From: Heptranchias perlo
Lineage: Eukaryota
NCBI RefSeq assembly: GCF_035084215.1
Contig: NC_090340.1
Span: forward strand, 3,472,001-3,536,000
Reading direction: 5' to 3'
DNA: 64,000 nt
A program made the position numbers and the translations under genes. The notes under the pieces are model-generated. The model was not told where the DNA came from and did not search any database. It saw nothing but the letters and a program-made list of their open reading frames with translations. Shown piece by piece: positions 5,298 to 54,109 of the stretch; within the stretch, counting starts at the first letter, position 1; the number at the start of each line of letters is the position of its first letter.

Positions 5298-6645
5298 TTT
5301 TTTTTATTCGTTCATGGGATGTGGGCGTCGCTGGGGAGGCCAGCATTTATTGCCCATCCGTAATTGCACTTGAGAAGGTGGTGGTGAGCCGCCTTCTTGA
5401 ACCGCTGCAGTCCGTGTGCTGAAGGTTCTCCCACAGTGCTGTTTGGAAGGGAGGTCCAGGATTTTGACCCAGCGACGATGAAGGAACGGCGATATATTTC
5501 CAAGTCGGGATGGTGTGTGACTTGGAGGGGAACGTGCAGGTGGTGTTCTTCCCATGTACCTGCTGCTGTTTTGCTGCTAGGTGGTAGGGGTGGCGATTTT
5601 GGGAGGTGCTGTCGAAGAAGCCTTGGCGAGTTGCTGCAGTGCATCCTGTGGATGGTACACACTGCAGCCACTGTGCGCCAGTGGCGAAGGGAGTGAATGT
5701 TTAGGGTGGTGGATGGGCTGCCAATCAAGCGGGCTGCTTTGTCCTGGATGGTGTCGAGCTTCTTAAGTGTTGTTTTAGCTGCACTCGTCCAGGCAAGTGG
5801 AGTGTATTCCATCACACTCCTGACTTGTGCCTTGTAGGTGGTGGAAAGGCTTTGGGGAGTCAGGAGGTGAGTCACTCGCCGCAGAACACCCAGCCTCTGA
5901 CCTGCTCTTGTAGCCACAGTATTTATATGGCTGGTCCAGTTAAGTTTCTGGTAAATGGTGACCTCCAGGTTGATGATGGTGCGGGATTCGGCGATGGTAA
6001 TGTCGTTGAATGTCATGGGGAGGTGGTTAGACTCTCTCTTGTTGGAGATGGTCATTGCCTGGCACTTGTCTGGTGCGAATTTTACTTGCCACTTATGATC
6101 CCAAGCCTGGATTTTGTGCAGGTCTTGCTGCATGCGGGCTCGGACTGCTTCATTATTTGAGGGTTTGCGAATTGAAGTGAACACTGTGCAATCATCAGCG
6201 AATATCCCCATTTCTGACCTTATGATGGAGGGAAGGTCATGGATGAAGCAGCTGAAGATGGTTGGGCCTAGGACACTGCCCTGAAGAACTCCTGCATCAA
6301 TGCCTTGGGGCTGAGATGATTGGCCTCCAACAACCACTACCGTCTTCCTTTGTGCCAGATATGACTCCAGCCATAGAGTTTTCCCCCTGATTCCCATTGA
6401 CTTCAATTTTACTAGTGCTCCTTGGTGCTACTCTCGGTCAAATGCTACCTTGATGGCAAGGGCAGTCACTCTTATCTCACCTCTGGAATTCAGCTCTTTT
6501 GTCCATGTTTGGACCAAGGCTGTGATGAGGTCTGGAGCTGAGTGGTCCTGGCGGAACCCAAACTGAGCGTCGGTGAGCAGGTTATTGGTGAGTGAGTGCC
6601 GCTTGATAGCACTGTCGACGACACCTTCCATCACTTTGCTGATGA
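5298..6645 (-). mobile_element. Non-LTR retrotransposon of the CR1/L2 group ('family B'), 3' 1.35 kb
   Basis: ORF 5312..6406 has QGSVLGPTIF, FADDC and YKAQVRSVMEY; poly(A) is seen as the T-run at 5298-5305; highly similar to 26340-27600. Confidence 0.92.
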
Positions 6646-23791: not shown

Positions 23792-24150
23792 TGGGGTTTT
23801 AACGGGTGGGAGAGGTGGTTAACGAATGCGATGGTGTTCAACCGATGGGAGAGTTGTTTAAAGGGTGGGAGTGTATGACGGATGGGAAAAGTTTTAAACG
23901 GGTGGGAGAGGTGTTTATCGAATGGGCGAGTTGTTTAAGCGGCGGTAGAATTGTTTAACGGGCGGGAGCGATGATTAATGGGTAAGGGTGTGTCTAAAGG
24001 GGGTGGGAGAGGTGTCTATGCGGTGGAAGAGGTGTGTAACGGGTGTGAGAGGTATTTTCCTTATAGGAGAGGCGTATAATGGGTGGGACAGATGTATAAG
24101 GGTGGGAGGGTGTTTAAAGAGTGCGGGATGAAGAGGTGTGTTACGGTTGG
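23792..24150. repeat. 20-bp G-rich minisatellite, left block
   Basis: Degenerate tandem copies of AACGGGTGGGAGAGGTGTTT. Confidence 0.92.
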
Positions 24151-25331
24151 AAGCATAGTGGTTATGTCACTGGACTAGTAATCCAGAGGCCTGGACTAAT
24201 AATCCGGAGTCATAAGTTCAATTCCCGCCACGGCAACTGGGGAATTTAAATTCAATTAATTAATTAAATAAAATTTGCAATTAAAAAAACTAGTATCAAT
24301 AATGGTGGCCATGAAACTACCGGATTGTCGTAAAAACCCATTTGGTTCACTAATCTCATTGAGGGTAGGAAATCTGCCGTCCTTACCCGGTCTGGCCTAT
24401 ATGTAACTCCAGACCCACAGCAATGTGGTTGATTCTTAATTGCACTCTGAAATGGCCCAGCAAGCCATTCAGTTGTAAAATCTCGCTAAAAAAGTCAGAA
24501 TAAGAATAAAACCGGACGGACCACTAGGCGCCGGACACGATAAAGGCAAACCCAGCCCTGTCGACCCTGCAAAGTCCTCCTCACAAACATCTGGGGAATT
24601 GTGCCAAAATTGGGAGAGCTGTCCACAGACGAGACAAGCAACAGCCTGACATAGCCACACTCACAGAATCACACCTTTCAGCCAACGTCCCAGAATCTTC
24701 CATCACCATCCCTGGGTATGTCCTGTCCCATCGGCAGGACAGACCAACCAGGGGTGGCAGAACAGTGATACACATTCAGGAGCGAGTGGCCCTGGGAGTC
24801 CTAACATTTACCTCGGACCCCATGAAATCTCATGGCATCAGGTCAAACATGGGTAAGGAAATCTCCTGCTGATTACCACCTACAGTCCACCCTCAGCTGA
24901 CGAATCAGTCCTCCTCCATGTTGAGCAACACTTGGAGGAAGCACTGAGGGCAGCAAGGGCACAGAATATGCTCTGGGAGGGGAATTCAATGTCCATTACA
25001 AAGTAGAGGCTAGGTAGCACCACTACTGACCGAGCCGGCCGAGTCCTGAAGGAAGTAGTTGTCAGACTGGGCCTGCAGCAGGTGGTGAGCGAACGAACAC
25101 GAGTTAAAAACCTACTTGACCTCATTCTCACCAATCTATCTGTCGCAGATGCATCTGTCCATGATATTATTAGTAGGGGTGACCACCGCACAGTACTCGT
25201 GGAGATGAAGTCTCCTATTCGCAATGAGGTTACCATCCAACGTGTTGTATGGCACTATCACCTTTCTAAATGGGATAATTGTAAACAATTTTACAACACC
25301 AAGTTATAGTCCAGCAATTTTATTTTAAATT

Positions 25332-25366
25332 CACAAGCTTTCGGAGGCTACCTCCTTCCTCAGGTG
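25332..25366 (-). ncRNA. Minimal type I hammerhead ribozyme motif
   Basis: Minus strand reads cac-CTGAGGA-aggagg-tag-cctcc-GAAA-gctt-gtg. Confidence 0.8.
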
Positions 25367-25397
25367 AACAATGTGGAAACGACATTTCCACATCGTT

Positions 25398-25432
25398 CAC
25401 CTGAGGAAGGAGATAGCCTCCGAAAGCTTGTG
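25398..25432 (+). ncRNA. Minimal type I hammerhead ribozyme motif
   Basis: cac-CTGAGGA-aggagatagcctcc-GAAA-gctt-gtg: CUGANGA and GAAA cores, stems I and II, and palindromic AAGCTT in place of stem III. Confidence 0.8.
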
Positions 25433-27600
25433 AATTTAAAATAAAATTGCTGGACTATAACTTGGTGTTGTAAAATTGTTTACAATTGTCAACCCCAGTC
25501 CATCACCGGCATCGCCACATCATGACTAAATGGGATAGATTCAGGAGAGATCTAGCAGCTCAAAACTGGGGATCTACGAGGCGCTGTGTGCCATCAGCAG
25601 CAGCAGAAACCTATTCCAGCAAAATCTGTAACCTCATGGCCTGGCATATTCCTCACTCTACCATTACCAACAAGCCAGGGCTTCAACCCTGGTTCAATAA
25701 GGAGTGTAGAAGAGCACGCCAGGAGCAGCACCAGGCGTACCTAAAAATGAGGTGCCAACCTGATGAAACTACAACTCAGGACGACATGCATCCTAAACAG
25801 CGAAAGCAACATGCTATAGACAGAGCGAAGCGATTCCACAACTAACGGATCAGATCAAAGCTCTGCAGTCCTGCCACATCAAGTCGTGAATGGTGGTGGA
25901 CAATTAAACAACTAACGGGAAGAGGAGGCTCTGCAAACGTCCCCATCCTCAAAGATGGCGGAGTCCTGCACGTGAGTGCAAAAGACAAGGCTGCATCGTT
26001 TGCAACCATCTTCAGCCAGAAGTGCGGAGTGGATATTTATCTCGACCTCCTCCCGATATCCCCACCATCATTGAAGCCAATCTTCAGCCAATTCGATTCA
26101 CTCCACGTGATATCAAGCAACGGCTGAGTGCAGTGGATACAGCAAAGGCGATGGGCCCCAACAACATCTCGGCTGTAGTGCTGAAGACTTGTGCTCCAGA
26201 ACTAGCCGCACTTCCAGCCAAACTGTTCCAGTACAGCTACAAAACTGGCATCTACCCGAAAATGTGTAAAATTGTCCAGGTATGTCCTGTCCACAAAAAG
26301 CAGGACAAATCCAATCTGACCAATTCCCGCACCATCAGCCTAATTTGGGTTCCACCAGGACAACTCGGCACCAGATCTCATTACAGCCTTGGTCCAAACA
26401 TGGACAAAAGAGCTGAGGTGAGTTGAGAGTGACTGCCCTTGACATCATGGCAGCATTTGACCGAGTGTGGCACCAAGGAGCCCTAGTAAAATTGAAGCCA
26501 ATGGGAATCAGAGGGAAAACTCACCAGTGGCTGGAGTCATAGCAAGCAAAAGGAAGATGATAGTGGTTGGTGGAGACCAATCATCTCAGCCTCAGGACAT
26601 TGCTGCAGGAGTTTCTCAGGGCAATGTCCTCGGCACAACAATTTTCAGCTGCTTCATCAATGACCTTCCCTCCATCATAAGGTCAGAAATGGGGATGTTC
26701 GCCGATGATTGCACAGTGTTCAGTTCGATTCGCAACCCCTCAGATAATGAAGCGGTCCGTGCCCGCATGCAGCAAGACCTGGACAACATCCAGGCTTGGA
26801 CTGAGAAGTGGCAAGCAACATTCGCGCCAGACAAGTGCTCGGCAATGACCATCTCCAAAAAAAGAGTCCAATCACCTCAACTTGACATTCAACGGCATTA
26901 CTATCACCGAATCTCCGACAGTCAACATCCTGGGGTCACCATTGACCAGGAACTTAACTGAACCAGCCACATAAATACTGTGGCTACAAGAGCAGGTCAG
27001 AGGCTGGGTATTCTGGGGCGAGTGACTAACCTCCTGACTCCCCAAAGCCTTTCCACCATTTACAAGGCACAAGTTAGGAGTGTGATGGAATACTCTCCAC
27101 TTGCCTGAATGAGTGCAGCTCCAACAACACTCAAGAAGCTTGACATCATCCAGGACAAAGCAGCCCGCTTGAATGGCACTCCATCCACAACCCTAAATAT
27201 TAATTCCCTTCACCACCGGCGCACTGTGGCTGCAGTGTGTACCATCCACAGGATGCACTGCAGCAACTCGCCAAGGCTTCTTTGACAGCACCTCCCAAAC
27301 CCGCAACTCCTCCCACCTAGAAGGGCAAGGGCAGCAGGCACATGGGAACAACACCACCTTCATGTTCCCCTCCAAGTCACACACCATCGCGACTTGGAAA
27401 TATATCGTCGTTCCTTCATCGTCGCTGGGTCAAAATCCTGGAACTCCCTTCCTAACAGCACTGTGGGAGAACCTGCATCACATGGACTGCATCGGTTCAA
27501 GACGGCGGCTCATCACCACCTTCTCGAGCGCAATTAGGGATGGGCAATAAATGCTGGGCTTTTCAGCGACGCCCACATCCCATGAACGAATAAAAAAAAA

Positions 27601-30600
27601 GCAGTGTATAACGGATGGGAGAGCGGTTTTACGGATGAGTGACGTGTTCAACGAATGGGAGAGTTGCGTAAAGGGTAGGAAAGTTATATTATGGATGGGA
27701 GAAGTATTTAACGTTTGAGAGAGGTGTGTACCGGTTGGAAAGGTGCTTAACGGGTGGCAGAGGTTTTTAACGGGCGGGGGAGGTGTTTAACAGACTGGAG
27801 AGTTTTTAACGGGCGGGAGAGGTGTTTAAGGGGAAGGAGAGAGAGTGGCTTGTAAAGAGTGGTTGAGATGTTTCTCGGGTGTGAGAGATGTATAAGATGT
27901 GGGATAGATATTTAACAAGGAGGAGAAGTGATTAACGGGTGAGCGGGGTGTTTAACGGTTAGGAGAGACTTCTAGCGGGTGGGAGAGAAGTTTAACGGAC
28001 GAGAGAGGCTTTTAACGTGTGGTTGAGACGTTTAACGGTTGGAAGAGGCGTGTAACGGATGACAGAGGCTTTTAACTTGTGGAGATGGTGTTTATCGTGT
28101 TGGAGAAGTTGGTAACGAATTGGTGAAGTGCTTAACTGGTAGGAAAGGTGTTTAACGGTTGGGAAAGGTTTTTATCGAGTGCCGGGGTGTTTAATGGGTG
28201 CGAACGTTATATGAGGGGGTGGAGAGGTGTTTAATGAGTGGAAGATGTGTGTTGCGAATAGAAGAGGCTGTTTAACGGTGGGAGAAATGTTTAACAAGGG
28301 GGCTGGTGTTAATTTGTGAGAGATGCTTTTAACGGGATGGATAGGATTTTGTAAGGGTGAGTGAGGTTTATAACGGATGGGAGAGGTGTTTAACTGGTGG
28401 AAGAGGTGTGTAACGTGTGATGGAGGTGTATAACGAATGCGACGGCTACTTAACGGATAGGAGAGGTGTTAAACGGATAGGAGAGTTGTGTAACGGTTAG
28501 GAGAGCGGTTTAACGGGTGATAAAGATGTTTAAAGGGAGGGACAGTTGTCCAACGGGTAGGAGAGGATTATAAGCAATGGGAGAGTTGCTTAACGGGTGG
28601 AAGAAAAGTTTAACGGATGGGAAAAGTGTCTAATGAGTTGGAGAGGTATGTATGTGGTGGAGGAGGTGTGTAACGAATGTCGAATGTGGTTAACGGGTAG
28701 GAGGTGCTTTAATGGGTGGGAATGTTTAGTGGGTGGCAGATGTGTTTAAGGGATAGGCGAGGCTACTTAACGGATGGTTCTGAGTGTTAACAACAGTCGA
28801 GGTGTGTAACGGATGGAAGAAGTGTTTAACGAGTGTGGCCGTGTTTAAGGGGTGTGGAAGTTATTTAACGGGGATGAGAGGTATTTAGCGGATGGGAGTG
28901 GTGTTTAACGGTTGGGAGAGGTGTTTTAATGAGTGGGAGAGGGGTTTAGCTGGCGGAAGAGGTGCTAAAAGAATAGGAGAGGTGTGTATCGGCTGGCAAA
29001 TGTGTTTACCGAGTGCGGCGGAGGTGTTTAAGTGGTGGGAAATTTAATTAAGGGGGAGGAGTTGTGTTTTACGGGTGGGAGAGGTGTTTAGAGTGTTGGA
29101 GATGTGTTTTCCAGGCAGGAGAGTGGTGTAATGAACGGGAGAGGTATTTAACAGCTCGGAGAGACTTTTAAAGTGAAGCGGTGTTTATCGGGTGGGAGAG
29201 GTTTTAAACGGTTGGGAGAAATGTCAATGCATTGGAAATGAGCAACGGGTGGGAGAGGTGTTTATGGGGTATGAGAATTGCTTAAGGGGTCAGAAATGTT
29301 TTTTCACGGAGATGAGAGGTGATTAACGGGTGGGAGAGGTGCCCAACTGGTGGGAGAGGTGTTTCACTGGTGGGAGAGTTGCCTAACTGGTGGAAGAATT
29401 GTCTGTCGAATGGAAGAGGTGTTTATGCGGTGGAAAAGGTCTGTAACGGGGGGAGAGGTGTTTAAACGGTCCAAGTGGTGTTTAAGTGGTGGTGGTGGGT
29501 GGGGGGGGGGGACATTAACCAATTGGAGGTATGTTTTACGGGTGGGAGAACTGTGTAACAGGTGGGAGAGGTGGTCAACGAGTGCGGGGGTGGGGTGTTT
29601 AAGGGGTGGGAAAGTTATTAATGGGGGAGGAATGGTGTTTGACGGGCGGGGGAGGAGTTTAATCGGTGGGAGAGGTGTTTAGCCGGTTGGAGATATGCTT
29701 AACGGAAGAGAGAGACTTTTAACGGGTGGAAGAAGCGTTTAACGGGTAGGAGAGTTGTGTAACGGGTGGTAGAAGTGTGTAACGCGTGGAAGCGATGTTT
29801 GATGCATGATAAAGGCTTTGAACGGGTGAAAGAGGTGTTTATCAGGTACGAGATATGTCTAACGGGTGGAAGAGGTGTGTAACGGGTGGGAGAGGTGTTT
29901 AGCGTATGCGGAAGAAATTTAAGGGGTGGCAAATTCAATGAAGCGGACGAGAAGTCTTTAACAGGTTGGAGACGTGTTTAATAGCTGGAGGAGGTGCTTA
30001 ACTTGTGAGTGAGGTGTGTCATGGGTGGGACAAGTGTTTAACCTGTTAGAGAGTTGTTTAACGATTAGGGGAAGTGTTTAATGGGTACGAGAAGTGTGTT
30101 ACTGGTGGGAGAGGTGCTTAAGGCAGGGAGATGGGGTTAACGCGTGAGTGAAGTGTATAACTGATGGGAGAGGATGTAAGGTGTGCGAAAGTTGTTTAGC
30201 GGCTGAGAGAGGTGTTTAACGTGTGAAAGAGGTTTGTAACGGGTGGGAGAGGTGCCTAACTGATGAGCTACTGTTTTAACGGGTGGAAGAAGTTTTTATT
30301 GGGTGGGAGATATGTTTAACGCGTGAGGAAGGTGTTTAACGGGTATGAGAGGTGTGTAACAGGTGGAAGAGGTGTTTACCGAATGGGAGAGGTGTTTAAC
30401 GACCAGAAGAGGTCCGTAATAGGTGGGATAGGTGTTTAACAAGTGCGGAACGTATTTAAATGGTGGGGAAGTTATTGAGGGGGGCGGGAGGGAGAGATTT
30501 TTAACTGGTGTTTAATGGTTGGAAGAGGCATCTAACGGGTAGGAGGGCGCTGTAATGGATGGGAAAGGTATGTAACGTGTGGGAGAGGTGTTTAACGGGT

Positions 30601-31055
30601 GAGAGAGGTTTGCAACTGGTAGATGAGTTGCCTAACGGATGAGAGAGGCTTTTAACGGGTGGAAGAGGTGTTATTGTGTGGGTGAGATGTTTAACGGGTG
30701 GGGGAGGTGTTTAGCTAGACCGGGAGGAATGTAAGGGTTGGGAAAGATATTTAACGGGAAGGAGAGGCGCGTAAGATTGGGGGAAGGTGTTTAACAGGTC
30801 GGAGAGGTTTTTAAGCGGTCGATGAGGTATGTAATGGGCGAGAAATGTGTTTAAAAGGTGAAAGGGGGTTGTAACGTGTGGGAGAGTTCTTTAGCTTGTG
30901 GAAGCGTGTTTTAACCGGTGGTATATGTACTTAAGGGTTTGTAGAGGTGTTTAACGGGTGGGAGAAGTATAACACGGGTGGGAGAGGTGTTTACGGGGCG
31001 CCAGAGGTATTTAACGGAGGAGAGAGGTGTTTAACCGGTGGGAGAGGTGTTTAAT
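27601..31055. repeat. 20-bp G-rich minisatellite, right block (about 170 units by length)
   Basis: Continuous degenerate AACGGGTGGGAGAGGTGTTT repeats. Confidence 0.95.
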
Positions 31056-32409: not shown

Positions 32410-34460
32410 GAATCATAGAATCGTTACAGTCCACAAGGAGGTCATTCGGCCCATCAAGCCCGTACCAGCTAATTGTAAGAGCAATCCAGTTATTCCCATT
32501 CGCCTGCTCTTTCCCCGAAGCCCTGCAATTTTTTCCTTTAAAGTATTTATTCAATTCCTTTGAAAGCTACCATTGAATTTTCTTCTTCCACACTTTCAGA
32601 CAGTGCATTCCAGATCATAACTACTCGCTGCATAAAAAAGTTTTTCCTCACATCGTCTTTAGTTAATTTGCCAATCACCTTGAATCTGTGTCCACTGGTT
32701 CTCGACTCTTACACCAATGGGAATAGTTTCTCTTTATTTACTTTATTTAAATCCTGATTTTGTCTTATATTTTCTAACTGATGATTTTGAACACTTCTAA
32801 CAAATTTCCTTTCAACCTTCTCTGCTCTAATGAGAACAACCTCAGCTTCTCCAGTCAAGCAACGTAACTGAAGTCCCTCATCCCTGGAACCATTCTACTA
32901 AATCTTTTCTGCAACCTCTCTAAGGCCGTCGCATCCTTCCTAAATTGCGGTGCCCAGAATTGGACAAAATACTTCAGCTGTGGCCAAACCAGTGTTTTAT
33001 AAGGGTCAACATCACTTCCTTGCTTTTGTACTCGATGCCTCTATTTATAAAGCCCAGTCACCCGTGTGCTTTTTAAAATCACTTTCTCAACCTGTCCTGC
33101 AACCTCCAAAGATTTGTGCACAAATGCCCCAGGTCTCTCTGTTCCTGCACCATATTTAGAATTATACCATTTAGTTTATATTGCGTCTCCTAAACCTTCC
33201 TGCCAATATTTATCCTTTCGAACTTCCCTGCATTCAATTTATTCTGCCATGTGGTGTCCGCCCATTCCACCAACCTGTCTATGTCCCCTTGAAGTCAATT
33301 ATTATCCTCCTCACTGTTTACTACACTTCCGCGTTTTGTGTCATCAGCAAGTTTTGAAATTGTGCCCTGTACACCCAAGTCAAAGTCATTTATATATATA
33401 TAAAAAACAGTGGTCCTGATACTGACCCCTGGGGAACACCATTGTATATCTTCCTCCATGATGTGGAGATGCCGGTGATGGACTGGGGTTGACAATTGTA
33501 AACAATTTTACAACACCAAGTTATAGTCCAGCAATTTTATTTTAAATCCACAAGCTTTCGGAGGCTTCCTCCTTCCTCAGCCTCCGAAAGCTTGTGAATT
33601 TTAAATAAAATTGCTGGACTATAACTTGGTGTTGTAAAATTGTTTACAATTATCTTCCTCCAGTCCGAAAAACAACCGTTCATCACTGCGCTGTTTCATA
33701 TCACTTAGCCAATTTCGTATCCATGCTGTCACTTCCCCTTTTATTCCATCAGCGTCAATTTTGCTGACAAGCATATTATGTGACACTTTATCAAACGCCT
33801 TCTGAAAGCCCATATACACAGCATCAACTGCACTGTCCTCGTCAATCCTCTCTGGTACCTCATCAAAAAGCTCAATGAAGTTAGTCAAACATGTTTTGTC
33901 TTTAACAAATCCGTGCTAGATTTCCTTTATTATTCCACTCATTTCCAAGTGACTATTAACTTTGTCCCAGGTTATCGTTTCTAAAAGCTTCCCCACCACC
34001 GATGATAAACTGACTTGCCTGGCATTAACATGTTTATCCTTAAACCCTTTTTTGAACAAGGATGTAACATTGGTAATACTTCAGTCTTCTGGCGCCACCG
34101 CTGTATCTAAGGAGGATTGGAAGAATATGGCCAGCATCTCTGCAATTTCCACCCTTACTTCCCTCATGAACTCAGGATGCATCCCATCCAGACCGGATGA
34201 CTTATTTACATTAAGCACAGCCAGCCTATCTAGTACGTACTCTTTATCATTTTTTACCCCATCCAGTCTCACAACTACCTCCTCCTTTACTGTGGCTTTT
34301 GCAGCATCTTCTTCCTTGGTGTAGAGGGATGACAAGTGCTCATTGAGAACCTCAGCCATGCCCTCTGCCTTTATGCATGCATCTTCTTTTTGGTCCCTAA
34401 CCTGCTCCAGCCCTTCTCTTATGACCCATTTACTATTTATATGCCGATTGAATACTTTTC
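32410..34460 (-). mobile_element. CR1 LINE fragment
   Basis: tagaatcatagaatc tail; MAEVLNE.., TNFIELFDEV..FQKAFDKV, SKLADDTK. Confidence 0.92.
33459..33650 (-). mobile_element. Second palindromic Penelope-derived mini-element (192 bp)
   Basis: Tail plus inverted arms; 12-bp TSD TATCTTCCTCCA at 33447-33458 and 33651-33662; minus-strand hammerhead core at 33549-33580. Confidence 0.93.
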
Positions 34461-40436: not shown

Positions 40437-41068
40437 TGATGTGGAGATGCCGATGATGGTCTGGGGTGAACAAATGTAAGGAGTCGCACAACACCAGGTT
40501 ATAGTCCAACAGCTTTGTTTGAAATCACAAGCTTTCGGAGCTTTGCTCCTTCGTCAGGTGAAGTGAAGAGTTGCATAAAGGCACTGCATATATAGTCAGA
40601 GAACAATGCCTGATGATTACAGATAATCTTTCTAACTGCCCTTTATAACACCTCGGCAGAGAGATAATCACAGCAATCAAATGAGTGAATGTTGTTCAAA
40701 CAGGTTAGTCAGGGAAACATTACATCCAAGAATACTGAGGTGGGGTCACCAAGGGTCAAATGTAGCAGATGCTGGGGTATGTATTAAAAGCAGATAACTT
40801 TTTTTTGCTGGAAATTGCAGCAGGTCCTGCCGCACCTGTGTATGGAGAACAAGTCAACTACGACTTGAGTCTGGATGACTCTACGTCAGGTGGGGTTACA
40901 CGTAACGTGACATGAACCCAAGATCCCGGTTGAGGCTGTCCTCATGGGTGCGGAACTTGGCTATCAATTTCTGCTCGACGATTTTGCGTTGTCTTATGTC
41001 TTGAAGGCCGCCTTGGAGAACGCTTACCCGAAGATCGGAGGCTGAATGTCCTTGACTGCTGAAGTCGT
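40437..41068 (-). mobile_element. Penelope-like 3' fragment (GIY-YIG C-terminus + pLTR + tail) with a hammerhead at 40526-40560
   Basis: FSSQGHSASDLRVSVLQGGL..EQKLIAKFRTHEDSLNRD; minus strand cac-CTGACGA-aggagc-aaa-gctcc-GAAA-gctt-gtg; tail read on + as tgatgtggagatgcc. Confidence 0.88.
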
Positions 41069-41949
41069 TCGCAATATCCAAGTGAGCTCGTCATCACCCG
41101 TAGGAAAAACAGAGTGGCTCCATATTGAATAGGTAGCCTTTTGCATTGGTGAAATGCGCTCTCCAGTCGCTTGGGTCTTGCGGGAATTGAACACTATTTT
41201 CTGGGGTAGCACAATTGCACCAATTAGGGGAAAGCTGGTACTTCGGAAGTGTTCATGGGGGAGTTAAAGTCAGCGATTCGGTCTGTTAAGGGGTGGGGAT
41301 AGGTTTTAGGATAGTGCAAGCAAGTAATTGCTGTTATGGGAGGTGGGTAGCCATGATACCAGATCCTAAGCTCATACCCGCTTAACCAAAGTGCATTGCG
41401 AAGGATTAGTAGCTGTTGGGTTGAATTTCTGAGATTGTCTGTGAATTTGTCATCCACTAACTTCAGCAGAAGAGCCATGGAATCTTGCAAAACGGCATAA
41501 ACATTGTTTCGACTGTTCATCTGAGTTTCTGTATTTCTGCCACTGAAGTTACGGTGAAGTCTGAGAACCCCTAAGCAATTCACCGTTGAAATTTTTAGAT
41601 GGTGAAAATTTTGCTAGCTCCCAGAGTGCCCAGGGACAAAGGGGAGAATATCTGGTGATTTAACTTGCCTGCCCTGGACAGGTCACTGGTCTCATTGTGT
41701 CAGTGGTCTTCAGTTCTTATCGTTAGAGTGTTGGCACTCAGTGGTACTACCCTCCAATTGGTGCTAATGGCATTTCTGGCGGCTTTCCTGCAATGGACAT
41801 CAAGCAGTCTGTGATTCCTCATCTCAATTTTGCCAGATTCCGTGAAATTCGTGAGAAATAGGAGGTAAATTTATTTCTCTTTTCCAGCACTTCAGGTGGC
41901 AGCCATTCCAATGCATCTATCAGTCGGTGGTTCAAACCCAACAGTTTTC

Positions 41950-44423: not shown

Positions 44424-47400
44424 GAATCATAGAAAGTTTACAGTACAGAAGGAGGCCAATTGGTCCATCGAGTCCGCGCCGGTTTATTGCAAGACAAATC
44501 TAGCTAGTCCCGCTCCACAACACTATTCCCGTAGAACGACATTTTTTTTATTTCAAGGACATATTCAGCTCCCTTTTGAAGGCCATGATTGAATCTGCCT
44601 CCACCATCCCCTCTGGCAGTGCATTCCAGATCCTAACCATTCGCTGTGTAAAAACGTCTTTCCTCATGTCACCTTTGGTTCTTTTGCCAAACACCTTAAA
44701 TCTATATCCTCTGGTTGTTGACAATTCCGCTAATGGAAACAGTTTCTCTCTATCTGCTCTGTTTAAAACCTTCATCATTTTGAATACCTCTATCAAATCT
44801 CCTCGCAACCATCTCTGTTCCAACGAGAAAAAAACCCAGCTTCTCCAATCTATCCACGTAACTAAAGACCTTCATCCCTGGAATCATTCCAGTAAATCTC
44901 TTCTGCGCGCTCTCTAAGGCCTTTACAACTTTCCTCAAGTGCGTTGCCCAGAACTGCACGCAATATTCCAGTTGCGGCCTAACCAGTGTTTTATAAAGGT
45001 TCATCATGACTTCCATACTTCTGTATTCTATGCCTCTATTGATAAAGCCCAGTATCCCGTCGGCTTTTTTAATCGATTTCTCAACCTGTCCTGCTACCTT
45101 CAACGACTTGTTCACGTACATCCCCAGATCTCTTTTTCTTGTACCTATTTTGGAGTTGTGCCGTTTAGTTTATATTGCATCTTCTCGTTCTTCCTACCGA
45201 AATGTATCATTTCGCATTTTTTGAGTTAAATTTCATCTACCACGTGCCTTCCCATGGCACCAGCCTGTCTATATCCTCTTGAAATCTATCACAATCCTCC
45301 TCACTGTTTGCTACCCTTCCAAATTTAGTGTCATCTGCCAATTTTGAAATTGTGCCCGGTACACCCAAGTCCAAGTCATAAATATATATCAAGAAAAACC
45401 CAGCACCCAGCACCGACCCCTGGGCAACACCACTGTATACCTCCCTCCAACCGAAAAACAACCGATCACCACTGCTCTCTGTTTCCTGTCACTTAACCAA
45501 TTCTGTATCCATGTTGCTACTTCACCCTTTATTCCATAGGCCGTAATCTTGAATATAAGCCTACCACACGGCACTTTATCAAATGCCTTTTGAAAGTCCA
45601 TATGCACCACATCAACTGCATTGCCCTCGTCTAACCTTTCGGTTACCTCATCGAAAAACTCTATCAGGACAGTTAAAAACGATTTGCCTTTAACAAATCC
45701 GTGCTGGCTTCCCCTAATCAATCTACACTCGATCAAGTGACTGTTAATTCATTCCCGGAATATTCTTCCTAAAAGTTTCCCTACCACTGAGGTTAAACTG
45801 ATTGGCCTGTAGTTGCTGGGTTTATCCTTACACTCTTTTTTTGAACAATCGTGTAACACTTGCAAATCTACAGTCCTCTGGCACCAACCCGTATCTAAGG
45901 GTGTTTGGAAGATTATGGCCAGTACCTCCGCAATTTCCATCCTTACTTCCCTCAGCAACCTAGGGTGCATCCCATCCGGACCGGATGAATTATTTACTTT
46001 AAGTACAGCTAGCCTTTCAAGTACCTCTTCTTTATCAATTTTCAGCCCATCCAGTATCTCAACTATATCTTCCTTCACTGAAATTCTGGCATCATCTTCT
46101 TCCTTGGTAAAGAAAGATGCTACATACTCATTTAATACTTCAGCCATCCCCTCTGCCTCCACGAGTCGATCTTCATTATGGTCCCTATTCGGCCGTACCC
46201 CTCCTCTTGCTGCTCCTTTACTGGTTACATGCCTGTAGAAGACTTTTGGATTCCCTTTTATATTGGCCACCATTCAATTCTCATTCTCTATCTCTGCCAA
46301 ACTTATTTCCTTTTTCACTTCCCCTTTGAACTTCTTTATATTCTGCCTGGTTGTCAATTGTATTTTCAACGTGACGTCTCTCATACGCCCCTTTTTTCCG
46401 TTTCATCTTACTCACTATGTCTTTTGTCATCCAGGGAGCTCTGGTTTTAGTTGCCCTACGTATTTGACTAATGGGAATGTGCCTAAACTGTACCCGAACC
46501 ATCTCCTATATAAATGCAGCCCACCGTTCAATTACAGTTTTGCCTGCCAATCTTTGATTCTGATTTACCCAGGCCAGAACTGTTCTCATCCCATTGAAAT
46601 TTGCCCTCCTCCAATTGAGTATTTTTTCTTTAGAGTGGCCAATATCCTTTTTCCATAGCTATTCTAAACCTAATGATAATATCATCGCTGCTCCATAAAT
46701 GTTCTACCACTGACACTTGCTCCACTTGTACTGCCTCATTCCCTAGAACCAAGTCCAGCAATGCCTCCTTCGCCTTTGGGGCCGAAACGTACTGGCCAAG
46801 AAAGTTATCCTCAACACACTTCAAAAATTCTTCCCCCTCTTTGCCCCATATGTTATTATTGTTATCCCAGTCTATGTTAGGATAGTTGAAGTCGCCAGTT
46901 ATCACTACTCTATACCTTTTGCAGCTCTCTTTAATTTTCCTGCCAATTTGCTCCTCTATATCCTTCCAACTAGTTGGTGGCCTATAGAATACACCCAGTA
47001 GTATAATGGCACCTCTTTTATTCCTTAACTCTAACAAAATAGATTCTGCCCTTGACCGCTCCAGAGCATCCTCCCTCTCCAGTACTGCAATATTCTCCTT
47101 AATCAATACTGACACCCCCTCCTTTCTTTCCTTCCCTATATTTCCTGAGCACCTTGTATCCAGGAATATTTTGTAACCAATCCTGCTCTTTTTAAAGCCA
47201 GGTCTTCGTTATCGCCATGACATCTATTACCATGTGGCTATTTGAACCTGCAGCTCACTAACCTTGTTTATCACGCTTCATGAATTTACGCCCATGCACT
47301 GCAAACCAGTCTTGGAATTTCTTGTGCTCTCTCTTAGTCTGATCCCACTCAATACTGTACTATTACTTGTTCTAGTGCTATCTTTTTCTACCGATCCTTT

Positions 47401-50362: not shown

Positions 50363-51080
50363 TCTTTACTCCACTTTCCTAGTCTTGTCTCAGGCTTAAT
50401 TCCCTCATGTATATGACCCAGACTATCCTTTGTTTCTCGCTTGACATTCTCTGAAGTGCTCCCTACACAGGCAGCAATCCCAACTGCCTCATCCTTCTCA
50501 CTTGCCAACTTTCCCATTTCGTGCATTTAAGCTGGAGGCTAATCTGATACCCATCCTGTTCATCTTACCCACCACTGTCCTTTCAGATTCTGCCAATGGA
50601 AAAAAAAACAATACCTCTTCTTCCTGCATTTCCCCCCAGAATCCCCGTCTCTCGCAGTCCTTGCCATTCATGGCCTTATAGTTGACGATTGCATTCGCAT
50701 CCTGATTCTCACTGAATCTTGCCCCACGAGTGAGAACTCCTTATCTTTACTAAAGCCTTCCTCCCAAGCCATACATTACTCGACCTGCCCCAACCAAAAT
50801 ACTACAGTGGCGGCGTTGTCCATACCATCAAATCATATTTTGATCTTTCCCACTACTTCTCGGTACCTTCTTCTCCTTCGAGAATCGCAGCCTATGCCAT
50901 CTGCCTCGCCTCTCCTTTAAAATTATCGTTGTCTACTGCCCGCATAAGTCCCATCCCGCAATTCCTACCGAGTATCCTCCGTTCTTTGCGCTGTAACCCC
51001 TCAGCATCGGCAATTTAAATCACTACCTCAGCTCCCCTTGCCCTTTCTCCTCTAATTTTACTTCTCTGCTGTCTTCCCTA

Positions 51081-53546
51081 TGATGTGGAGATGCCGGTGA
51101 TGGACTGGGTTTGACAATTGTAAACAATTTTACAACACCAAGTTATAGTCCAACGATTTTATTTGAAATCTACAAACTTTCGGAGGCTTCCTCCTTCCTC
51201 AGGTAAATGTCATGAATTCATCGAAGCCGACGCATTTATAAATCAGAGAACAATACATGGTGATTACAGACTGCCCCTGCAACTGCTCGTTGCCAAGGCA
51301 ATCACCGTGTTCAGACAGAGAGGTGTCACCTACAGAACCCCCGAATATACATTCAACAAAAAAAACAAACAGGAAAAAAAACAGAGAGAGAGAGTGGCAG
51401 AAACATCCAGAAGGCAGAGAAAGCCAGCAAATGACCCGTTATATTAAAAACAGATAGCTTTTGTTCGCTGGTGGGCTTAAGTGTAGCATGACATGAACCC
51501 AAGATCCTGGTTGAGGCCATCCTCATGCGGAACTTGGCTATCAATTCCTGCTCGACAATTTTGCGTTGTCGTGTGTCTCGAAGGCCGCCTTGGAGTACGA
51601 TTACCCAAAGGTCGGTGGCTGAATGTCCATGACTGCTGAAGTGTTCCCCGACTGGGAGGGAACCCTCCTGTTTGGCGAATGTTGTGCGGTGTCCGTTCAT
51701 CCGTTATCGCAGTGGCTGCATGGTCTCGCCAATGTACCATGCTCTGGGGCATCCTTTCCTGCAACGTATGAAGTAGACAACGTTGACGGACCAGTTCAAT
51801 CAGGAACACTTCTCACCACGATGGACGTCTCGGCACTCTACACCAGTATCCCCCACGATGACGGCATCGCTGCGACAGCATCAATACTCAACACCAACAA
51901 CAGCCAATCTGAAGACGCCATCCAACAACTCATCCGCTTCATCCTGGATCACAATGTCTTCACCTTCGATAACCAGTTCTTTACCCAAACACACGGAACA
52001 GCCATGGGGACCAAATTTGCACCCCAATGCGCCAACATTTTCATGCACAAGTTCGGGCAGGACATCTTCACTGCACAGGACCTCCAACCAATGCAAAACA
52101 CCAGATACATCGACGACATTTTCTTTCTATGGACCCACGGCGAAGAATCACTGAAGAGACTACACGATAACATCAACAAGTTCCATCCCACCGTCAAGCT
52201 CACCATGGACTACTCCTCAGAATCAGTTTCTTTCTTGGACACACGAATCTCCATCAAAGACGGGCACCTCAGCACCTCACTCTACCGCAAGCCCACGGAC
52301 AACCTCACGATGCTCCACTTTTCCAGCTTCCACCCTAACCACGTCAAAGAGGCCATCCCCTATGGACAGGCCCTGCGAATACACAGGGTCTGCTCAGACG
52401 AGGAGGAACGGGATGGACACCTACAGACTCTGAAAGACGCCTTGGTAAGAACGGGATATGATGCTCGACTCATCGATCGACAGTTCCGACGGGCCACAGC
52501 GAAAAATCACGTAGACCTCCTCAGAAGACTAACACGGGACGCAACCAACAGAGTACCCTTCGTCGTCGAGTACTTCCCCGGAGCGGAGAAACTACACCAT
52601 GTTCTCCGCAGCCTTCAACATGTCATCAATGACGACGAACACCTCGCTATGGCCATCCCCACACCTCCACTACTCGCCTTTAAGCAGCCACCCAACCGCA
52701 AACTGACTATGGTGCGCAGCAAATTACCCAGCTTTCAGGAGAACAGCGTCCACGACACCACACAACCCTGCCACGGCAACCTCTGCAAGACATGCCAGAT
52801 CATCGACACAGATACCACCATCACACGAGAGGACACCACCCACCAGGTGCATGGTTCATACTCCTGTGACTCGGCCAACGTTGTCTACCTCATACGTTGC
52901 AGGAAAGGATGCCCCAGAGCATGGTACATTGGCGAGACCATGCAGACACTATGACAACGGATGAACGGACACCGCACAACAATCGCCAAACAGGAGGATT
53001 CCCTCCCAGTCGGGGAACACTTCAGCAGTCAGGGACATTCAGCCACCGACCTTCGGGTAAGCGTACTCCAAGGCGGCCTTCGAGACACATGACAACGCAA
53101 AATTGTCGAGCAGAAATTGATAGCCAAGTTCCGCACCCATGAGGACGGCCTCAACCGGGATCTTGGGTTCATGTCACGCTACACGTAAGCCCACCAGCGA
53201 ACAAAAGCTACCTGTTTTTAATATAACGGGTCATTTGCTGGCTTTCTCTGCCTTCCGGATGTTTCTGCCTCTCTCTCTCTCTGTTTTTTTTCCTGTTTGT
53301 TTTTTTGTTGAATGTATATTCGGGGGTTCTGTAGGTGACACCTCTCTGTCTGAACACGGTGATTGCCTTGGCAACGGGCAGTTGCAGGGGCAGTCTGTAA
53401 TCACCATGTATTGTTCTCTGATTTATAAATGCGTAGGCTTCGAGGAATTCCTGACATTTACCTGAGGAAGGAGGAAGCCTCCGAAAGCTTGTAGATTTCA
53501 AATAAAATCGTTGTACTATAACTTGGTGTTGTAAAATTGTTTACAA
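51081..53546 (+). mobile_element. Penelope-like element (Neptune-type), 5'-truncated RT + GIY-YIG with an inverted 5' pLTR
   Basis: TMDVSALYTSI, GTAMG, RYIDDIF, LYRKPTD, Cys linker CHGNLCKTC, NVVYLIRC..WYIGET; 51115-51785 is an inverted copy of 52876-53546; 12-bp TSD CTGTCTTCCCTA at 51069-51080 and 53547-53558; premature stop at 52952. Confidence 0.96.
53459..53493 (+). ncRNA. Minimal hammerhead ribozyme motif in the Penelope pLTR (mirror copy at 51171-51205 on the minus strand)
   Basis: tac-CTGAGGA-aggagg-aag-cctcc-GAAA-gctt-gta. Confidence 0.82.
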
Positions 53547-54109
53547 CTGTCTTCCCTAAACCTCTCCCTGAATTTCAACTCTGCCACCGATATACAAAAC
53601 CAACTCCTCGAATTTGCCCTCTCACGTTGCCTCTCTACTCCAATTGTCGAGATCACAGATTAGGCTATCTCTGACCACTTATTTGCATCCCTCACCAGCT
53701 GCTTCCCCCTAATCCATTCTAACCCCACTTCTGCCTGCATCCGTCGATGGAAAAAACTATCTCCGAGATACTTACATGTGCACTTTCAAGCTGGCAACTG
53801 CCCAGCCTCTGTCCCTCCAGTTGCTACGATACGTCTGCAGCTGTTGATCTCTTCAGGCACTTCCGTACCTCTACCTTTGGTGCCTTTTTCTCCAGTAAAG
53901 CCTTCACTGTCTCCCATGATGGTTGTTGCCTCTGGTATAGCCCCCATCTTAACTCATTCAAGTACAAGAGACGCAGATTTGAGTGTATTTGGTGCCGAAC
54001 TGGTCCAGCCATCCATTACCAGATCTGGACATTTAGCGCCCGAAGGCTTCACTCTATTCTGCCTAAACTGTCGCCTACTCCACGATCATCTTGGAGACCA
54101 AGCATATTC

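Follow-up and report, generated by a model that had tools for sequence, protein, structure and literature searches.

Structure of the insertions

The window, that is, the whole 64,000-nt stretch analysed (Heptranchias perlo, NC_090340.1, positions 3,472,001 to 3,536,000), carries at 25278–25525 a 248-bp insert consisting of two inverted copies of a Penelope-like element (PLE) 3′ end and a tail. A tail-less inverted terminus of 102 nt (25278–25379, minus strand) is followed by a 5-nt loop, CGACA, at the head-to-head junction (25380–25384, plus), by the sense terminus forming the tailed arm (25385–25486, plus) and by a one-sided tail of 39 nt (25487–25525, plus). The arms are identical at 100 of 102 positions and the hairpin was computed at −170.7 kcal/mol (z −31), with none of 200 shuffles equally stable; the ~100-bp hairpin proposed in a first-pass annotation of this DNA was thereby borne out. 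The insert is flanked by an exact 12-bp TSD, CTAAATGGGATA, at 25266–25277 (left, plus) and 25526–25537 (right, plus). Read on the minus strand, the left copy starts with TATC, in register with the TGTC of the element. Contigs of the host LINE fuse left-flank-like sequence straight to a single 12-mer; this empty site identifies the TSD as a true duplication.

A sister insertion of 192 bp with the same design is located at 33459–33650 (minus), between exact 12-bp TSDs, TATCTTCCTCCA, at 33447–33458 and 33651–33662. It has a 36-nt tail, a tailed arm of 86 nt and a tail-less arm of 72 nt (70/72 identical), joined with a 2-nt overlap and with inner ends offset by 14 nt. The tailed arms of the two short copies are 97% identical. 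The LINE paralogue at 45096–45787 matches both flanks of the 192-bp copy and contains the insertion site once (45438–45449, plus), so that this TSD is also a true duplication. For both short copies, the earlier description as inverted Penelope termini with a tail of ~35 nt and a clean 12-bp TSD was confirmed, the tail measuring 36–39 nt when counted from where the TSD places the end of the tail-less arm.

The third inverted copy is longer (51081–53546, minus; 2.5 kb; TSD at 51069–51080 and 53547–53558) but has the same design. Its tailed arm (51081–51785, minus) spans ~0.7 kb and its tail-less arm (about 51786–53546, plus) ~1.76 kb; ~1.1 kb of RT sequence in the latter is missing from the former. 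The terminus found in the short inserts is 91% identical to the end of this element over 128 nt.

Using BLAST with the arm, four related insertions were found within 28.3 kb of the window. This agrees with the four in about 28 kb counted previously as a dense set of hairpins; an inverted arm is present in only three of them, and two are short hairpins. The fourth (40437–41070, minus) is an older related PLE copy with a terminus about 80% identical, a tail and one hammerhead motif; no inverted arm was found, nor, with as many as 2 mismatches allowed, a TSD within 3.5 kb. It belongs to an older subfamily, with compensated hammerhead helices, a CUGACGA core and a different helix II, and aligns to the long copy only in parts of its 3′ region. 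In a self-comparison of the whole window, only three inverted pairs within 5 kb were detected, all of this PLE family.

Outer anatomy is alike in the three inverted copies: each has a 12-bp TSD and a one-sided tail of 36–39 nt, and the tail-less arm ends at one site within 1 nt. The three junctions all differ, in line with the independent events suggested earlier; this view at the level of individual sequences is based on three copies. An inverted truncated copy with a 30–40-nt tail is typical of PLEs (PMC8557442), and the same insertion design has been described in PMC3846280 and PMC8969392. Having a link to RT and GIY-YIG sequences, a tail at one end and an inverted 5′-truncated copy within one TSD, as EN+ PLE insertions do, the short inserts behave as ordinary PLE insertions in which both units are truncated to an extreme degree. 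The three TSDs (25266–25277, 33447–33458 and 51069–51080) are exactly 12 bp long and purine-rich on the element sense strand, where they end in GATA, GATA and GACAG; this likeness suggests a target preference. A scan for the terminus pattern gave no match in viral contigs, one in metagenome contigs, whose printed context does not continue as the element, and two in bacterial genomes, taken as chance.

Coding capacity and clade

A frame in the tail-less arm of the long copy (51788–53190, plus) encodes a 5′-truncated PLE RT, a CX4CxxC linker and a GIY-YIG endonuclease, interrupted by two in-frame stops. Over 465 aa it is 91% identical to P0001, and its best homologues are shark proteins with 80–91% identity. 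The RT was matched by RVT_1 (Pfam, E = 1e-10). The GIY-YIG-type region reads YLIRC..WYIGET, and PF01541 is present in several homologues; Pfam gave no match for the 45-aa endonuclease piece alone. The linker between RT and endonuclease, CHGNLCKTC, fits CX2-5CxxC, which is a trait of Neptune and Nematis and is given as absent in Penelope and Poseidon in PMC8557442. As judged from its linker, the element is compatible with Neptune, to which it had been assigned, and also with Nematis.

In their common coding part, the arms of the long copy show a 4-nt gap and 16 substitutions, of which 3 are synonymous, 13 are not and 6 fall at CpG; neutral decay of initially alike arms would give such a pattern. 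Two different source templates for these arms received no support from the substitutions.

Hammerhead motifs

Both strands of the 248-bp copy contain a complete hammerhead motif, as the first-pass annotation had reported; the motifs are of the minimal type I, with cores at 25401 (plus) and 25363 (minus), and each has a 6-bp helix I, CUGAGGA, GAA-AGCU and a CUU site. The minus-strand motif (25329–25369) reads helix I, CUGAGGA, helix II and GAA-AGCU-U; the plus-strand motif (25395–25435) is predicted to be cut after 25429, which lies 96 nt upstream of the tail end. A complete pair occurs in this copy only. In the 192-bp copy the motif is incomplete on either strand, helix I being lost on one and the core on the other, and one of the two motifs of the long copy has lost its AGCU palindrome. 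Rfam assigned no family at gathering score in the window; at E ≤ 10, the 21 matches on 25200–25600 included no hammerhead and were mostly miRNA or sRNA hairpin models far below gathering. The hammerhead call is therefore based on motif inspection. Like metazoan PLE hammerheads (PMC4209133), the motifs have a CUGANGA core with an extra unpaired base before helix II, a palindromic 15.2–16.2 and no loop 3. Dual hammerheads on opposite strands, 100–700 bp apart, were ascribed in 2014 to truncated PLEs in Schistosoma (PMC4209133), whereas the predicted cores in the shark 248-bp copy are only 38 nt apart and lie inside a near-perfect hairpin.

Folding predictions gave a helix I pairing probability below 1e-42 in the palindrome, with a cost of 63–68 kcal/mol if the helix was forced. 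In both polarities, transcription passes through the complement before it reaches the ribozyme arm. The hammerheads of the 248-bp copy are thus predicted to be sequestered inside the hairpin in read-through RNA. Because the motifs lie on opposite strands, a dimer in cis is not possible. A swapped double-hammerhead fold was computed at −19.3 kcal/mol; two monomers (−20.2) and the best co-fold (−24.6) are more stable, so that it is possible but not favoured. In PMC4209133, minimal PLE motifs of this kind showed no activity as monomers and weak activity as dimers. The arms span the predicted cut site, which means that the template was uncleaved at the hammerhead. If the 248-bp locus is transcribed, long dsRNA would form. 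The idea that such inserts seed ribozymes was overstated, given motifs on opposite strands that are predicted to be buried and a 192-bp copy without a complete motif; a role as a source of ribozymes or small RNAs is hypothetical.

Contig depth

Contigs of four runs were mapped on 25360–25560, representing one arm and 20 nt of the other; these 20 nt can be covered only by contigs that span the loop. X4 and X1 are DNA runs from a single sample of the organism that matches best, which may be the source species of the window. Summed depth on the arm was 5.5–11.9 million (X4) and 1.9–4.9 million (X1), while that beyond the loop (25360–25373) was 19–28 (X4) and 79 (X1), so that the loop junction is rarer than the arm by 2 × 10^4- to 6 × 10^5-fold. 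Summed depth does not give copy number, since contigs are collapsed and identical copies merge; from one to some tens of copies with the 248-bp loop are consequently possible. For comparison, the listed contigs of 0.8–1.3 kb had depths of 29–44 (X4) and 7 (X1).

Family contigs align from 25383, and depth collapses ~1000-fold left of about 25381. The loop CGACA is thus at least partly natural sense-strand sequence. Given this fall in depth, a natural hairpin in a master element at the position of the 248-bp loop was rejected.

Among the loose ends listed (24, with 360 more), 15 and 16 contigs leave the element behind 25491 for long unlike flanks, and 36 and 45 do so behind 25522/25523. These two classes of 3′ ends correspond to the pair of RT start sites on either side of the tail in PMC11167929. 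In the joint table none was labelled a strand change; 12 joints at 12 different coordinate pairs (depth 7–109) were of unstated kind, one of them doubling as a skip, and were not counted as loops. No tandem array was present at the insertion sites. Run X5, tentatively labelled RNA, yielded 3462 contigs, which give neither ends nor expression level; contigs of organism B (run X6) did not cover the element at 85% likeness, an outcome that carries no weight either way.

An amplified palindromic family is not supported by these data. Such a family, retrozyme- or MITE-like and non-autonomous, would have its palindrome transcribed and re-inserted whole by the PLE protein. It would account for the clean TSDs, for the retention of the tail and start sites needed in cis and for the 97% identity between the short copies' tailed arms; the X1 loop depth of 79, higher than the 7.3 of the 1.3-kb contig, also leaves room for a few loop-sharing copies. 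Three junctions in three copies, a loop 10^4- to 10^5-fold below the arm, the lack of a tandem array, the impossibility of a hammerhead dimer in cis and the predicted burial of the hammerheads nevertheless make it highly improbable, and the retrozyme-like family of the first-pass annotation is not supported, given the same loop depth and the missing head-to-tail array.

Two other joints were observed in the contigs. An X5 contig (depth 40.6) joins the tail end to a point just upstream of the hammerhead, giving a 132-nt unit (25397–25528) that is absent from the joint tables of both DNA runs. The PLE terminus could here form a retrozyme-like head-to-tail unit or a circle. An X4 joint connects the tail end to 25483 (25483–25521) with 11 other letters in between, about one TSD length, and may represent two PLE units side by side at one target.

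Origin of the palindromes

On balance, the palindromes are probably head-to-head pairs of PLE 3′ ends, made anew at each insertion by priming from both nicks and not copied from a palindromic parent. The PLE protein would make a 12-bp staggered cut in the target. One nick would prime cDNA synthesis at the tail end of the element RNA, and the other would prime internally, 36–39 nt upstream, likely aided by T[A/G]TC, which matches the RNA over 4 nt. The two cDNAs would end early and then be joined end to end with an overlap of 0–2 nt. When both stops are near the hammerhead, a palindrome of 190–250 bp would result; other stops would produce a longer, often lopsided inverted element such as that at 51081–53546. 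The hammerheads would be passengers, and the hairpin is predicted to silence them in read-through transcripts.

In vitro, the purified PLE protein of Anolis cuts both target strands and extends each of them, using two RT start sites that flank the tail, and hammerhead cleavage is unnecessary for its activity (PMC11167929). At all three tail-less ends, T[A/G]TC occurs inside the TSD in register with the RNA, as was noticed post hoc; the element reads ACAAT-TGTC and the targets TATC, TATC and TGTC. The motif has a frequency of 0.8% per site in the window. The match could reflect priming, endonuclease preference or end-joining. Unlike this match, the in vitro start site of the Poseidon element is described in PMC11167929 as not homologous to the cut DNA.

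The junctions overlap by 2 nt in the 192-bp copy, with none evident in the 248-bp and long copies. In both short copies the inner ends lie 5–14 nt from each other, near the hammerhead. Such close inner ends are more simply explained by fold-back or self-priming than by two independent cDNAs; for double priming, a common stop has to be assumed, such as the 5′ end of the RNA or pausing at the hammerhead. In the fold-back alternative, a truncated cDNA (or antisense template) would snap back at each insertion, be copied to 36–39 nt from the start and join the target by microhomology, again without giving rise to a family. The near-symmetric junctions (a 5-nt loop in the 248-bp copy and a 14-nt offset in the 192-bp copy) and the features shared by both arms of the 248-bp copy and absent from the other copies speak for it; in rotifer Penelopes, the palindromes found at inverted junctions have led to a proposal of self-priming (PMC3846280). 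Against it, no abundant natural stem exists at the 248-bp loop, where depth drops ~1000-fold, and since ~1.1 kb is present only in the tail-less arm of the long copy, its arms cannot have arisen from one another by fold-back. Fold-back is accordingly rather unlikely; of the earlier proposal of extreme fold-back truncation products, the absence of a family stands, while pure fold-back fails for the long copy.

Events after insertion were also considered, either a second stub landing exactly head-to-head or a longer inverted element losing its interior. Microhomology-mediated deletions are known in Penelope copies (PMC3846280) and the 192-bp junction has its 2-nt overlap, but one TSD common to both arms in all three copies excludes two separate insertions, and an internal deletion would need almost exactly symmetric breakpoints in both short copies. 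Of the explanations weighed here, we regard this as the least probable, and a very improbable one.

Double priming may be extended, tentatively, to a joint reading in which it is guided by sequence and combined with run-off of cDNA at the transcript 5′ end in shark PLEs. The target would be selected such that a T[A/G]TC end is exposed by the second nick, at a distance of 12 bp from the first, and this end would pair with the RNA at a fixed internal start. The cDNAs would begin in the 5′-most hammerhead-tail module of a tandem transcript and, in the manner of strong-stop DNA, terminate by run-off at the transcript 5′ end, a short way upstream of the hammerhead. If true, mini-palindromes across the genome would record the two RT start sites as well as the transcript 5′ end, and the origin of PLE inverted repeats would become directly testable.

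Relation to known elements

The insertions resemble inverted-pLTR EN+ PLEs such as Pen2a/Pen2 (PMC8557442; PMC3846280) in having an inverted 5′-truncated copy, a 30–40-nt tail at one end, a TSD and a palindrome at the junction. Unlike in those elements, both shark units are cut to 70–140 nt of terminus only, and the TSD is 12 bp, compared with 8–10 bp in rotifer copies (PMC8557442; PMC3846280). As in Poseidon PAc of Anolis, two RT start sites bound the tail, both strands would be cut and extended, and uncleaved RNA serves as template (PMC11167929); the shark element differs from PAc in its CX2-5CxxC linker of the Neptune/Nematis type and in the 4-nt match of the target to the RNA at the internal start, PAc being reported to lack one (PMC11167929). 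For the formation of PLE inverted repeats, self-priming has been proposed (PMC3846280) and second-strand steps are described as unvalidated in PMC11167929. The mini-inserts carry only the parts that are at issue in the formation of inverted repeats and one-sided tails, and the PLE terminus is extremely abundant in this shark genome.

Animal non-LTR retrozymes are head-to-tail repeats with at least two hammerheads on the same strand and a circular RNA (PMC7229834; bioRxiv 10.64898/2026.07.22.740005). The shark inserts are similarly short, non-coding and PLE-related, with a type I hammerhead and a TSD of more than 4 bp, but are arranged head-to-head with at most one motif per strand. Neither head-to-tail units with at least two same-strand hammerheads nor amplification as a family was found, a few loop-sharing copies still being possible. 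By definition, the 248-bp insert is not a retrozyme.

In twin priming of L1, microhomology allows priming from the second nick of the target at an internal position of the RNA, resulting in an inversion within one TSD; the inverted part is upstream, non-overlapping sequence with variable positions. In the shark copies, by contrast, the inverted part is a second copy of the same 3′ end, begun at a fixed internal position. Neither mini-palindromic PLE inserts nor target microhomology at the internal start was found described in the main texts of the open-licence literature. The insertions are a real feature with a known anatomy in a new host family and offer a modest mechanistic lead; for the most part they are an ordinary by-product.

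Additional features of the window

Two inverted, RT-bearing LINE fragments (5298–6562 and 26344–27599), about 90% identical and 20 kb apart, are ordinary young LINE copies. A degenerate, G-rich 20-bp minisatellite is present in about 16 copies at 23798–24117 and in about 173 copies at 27604–31054, and shows a strong GC skew.
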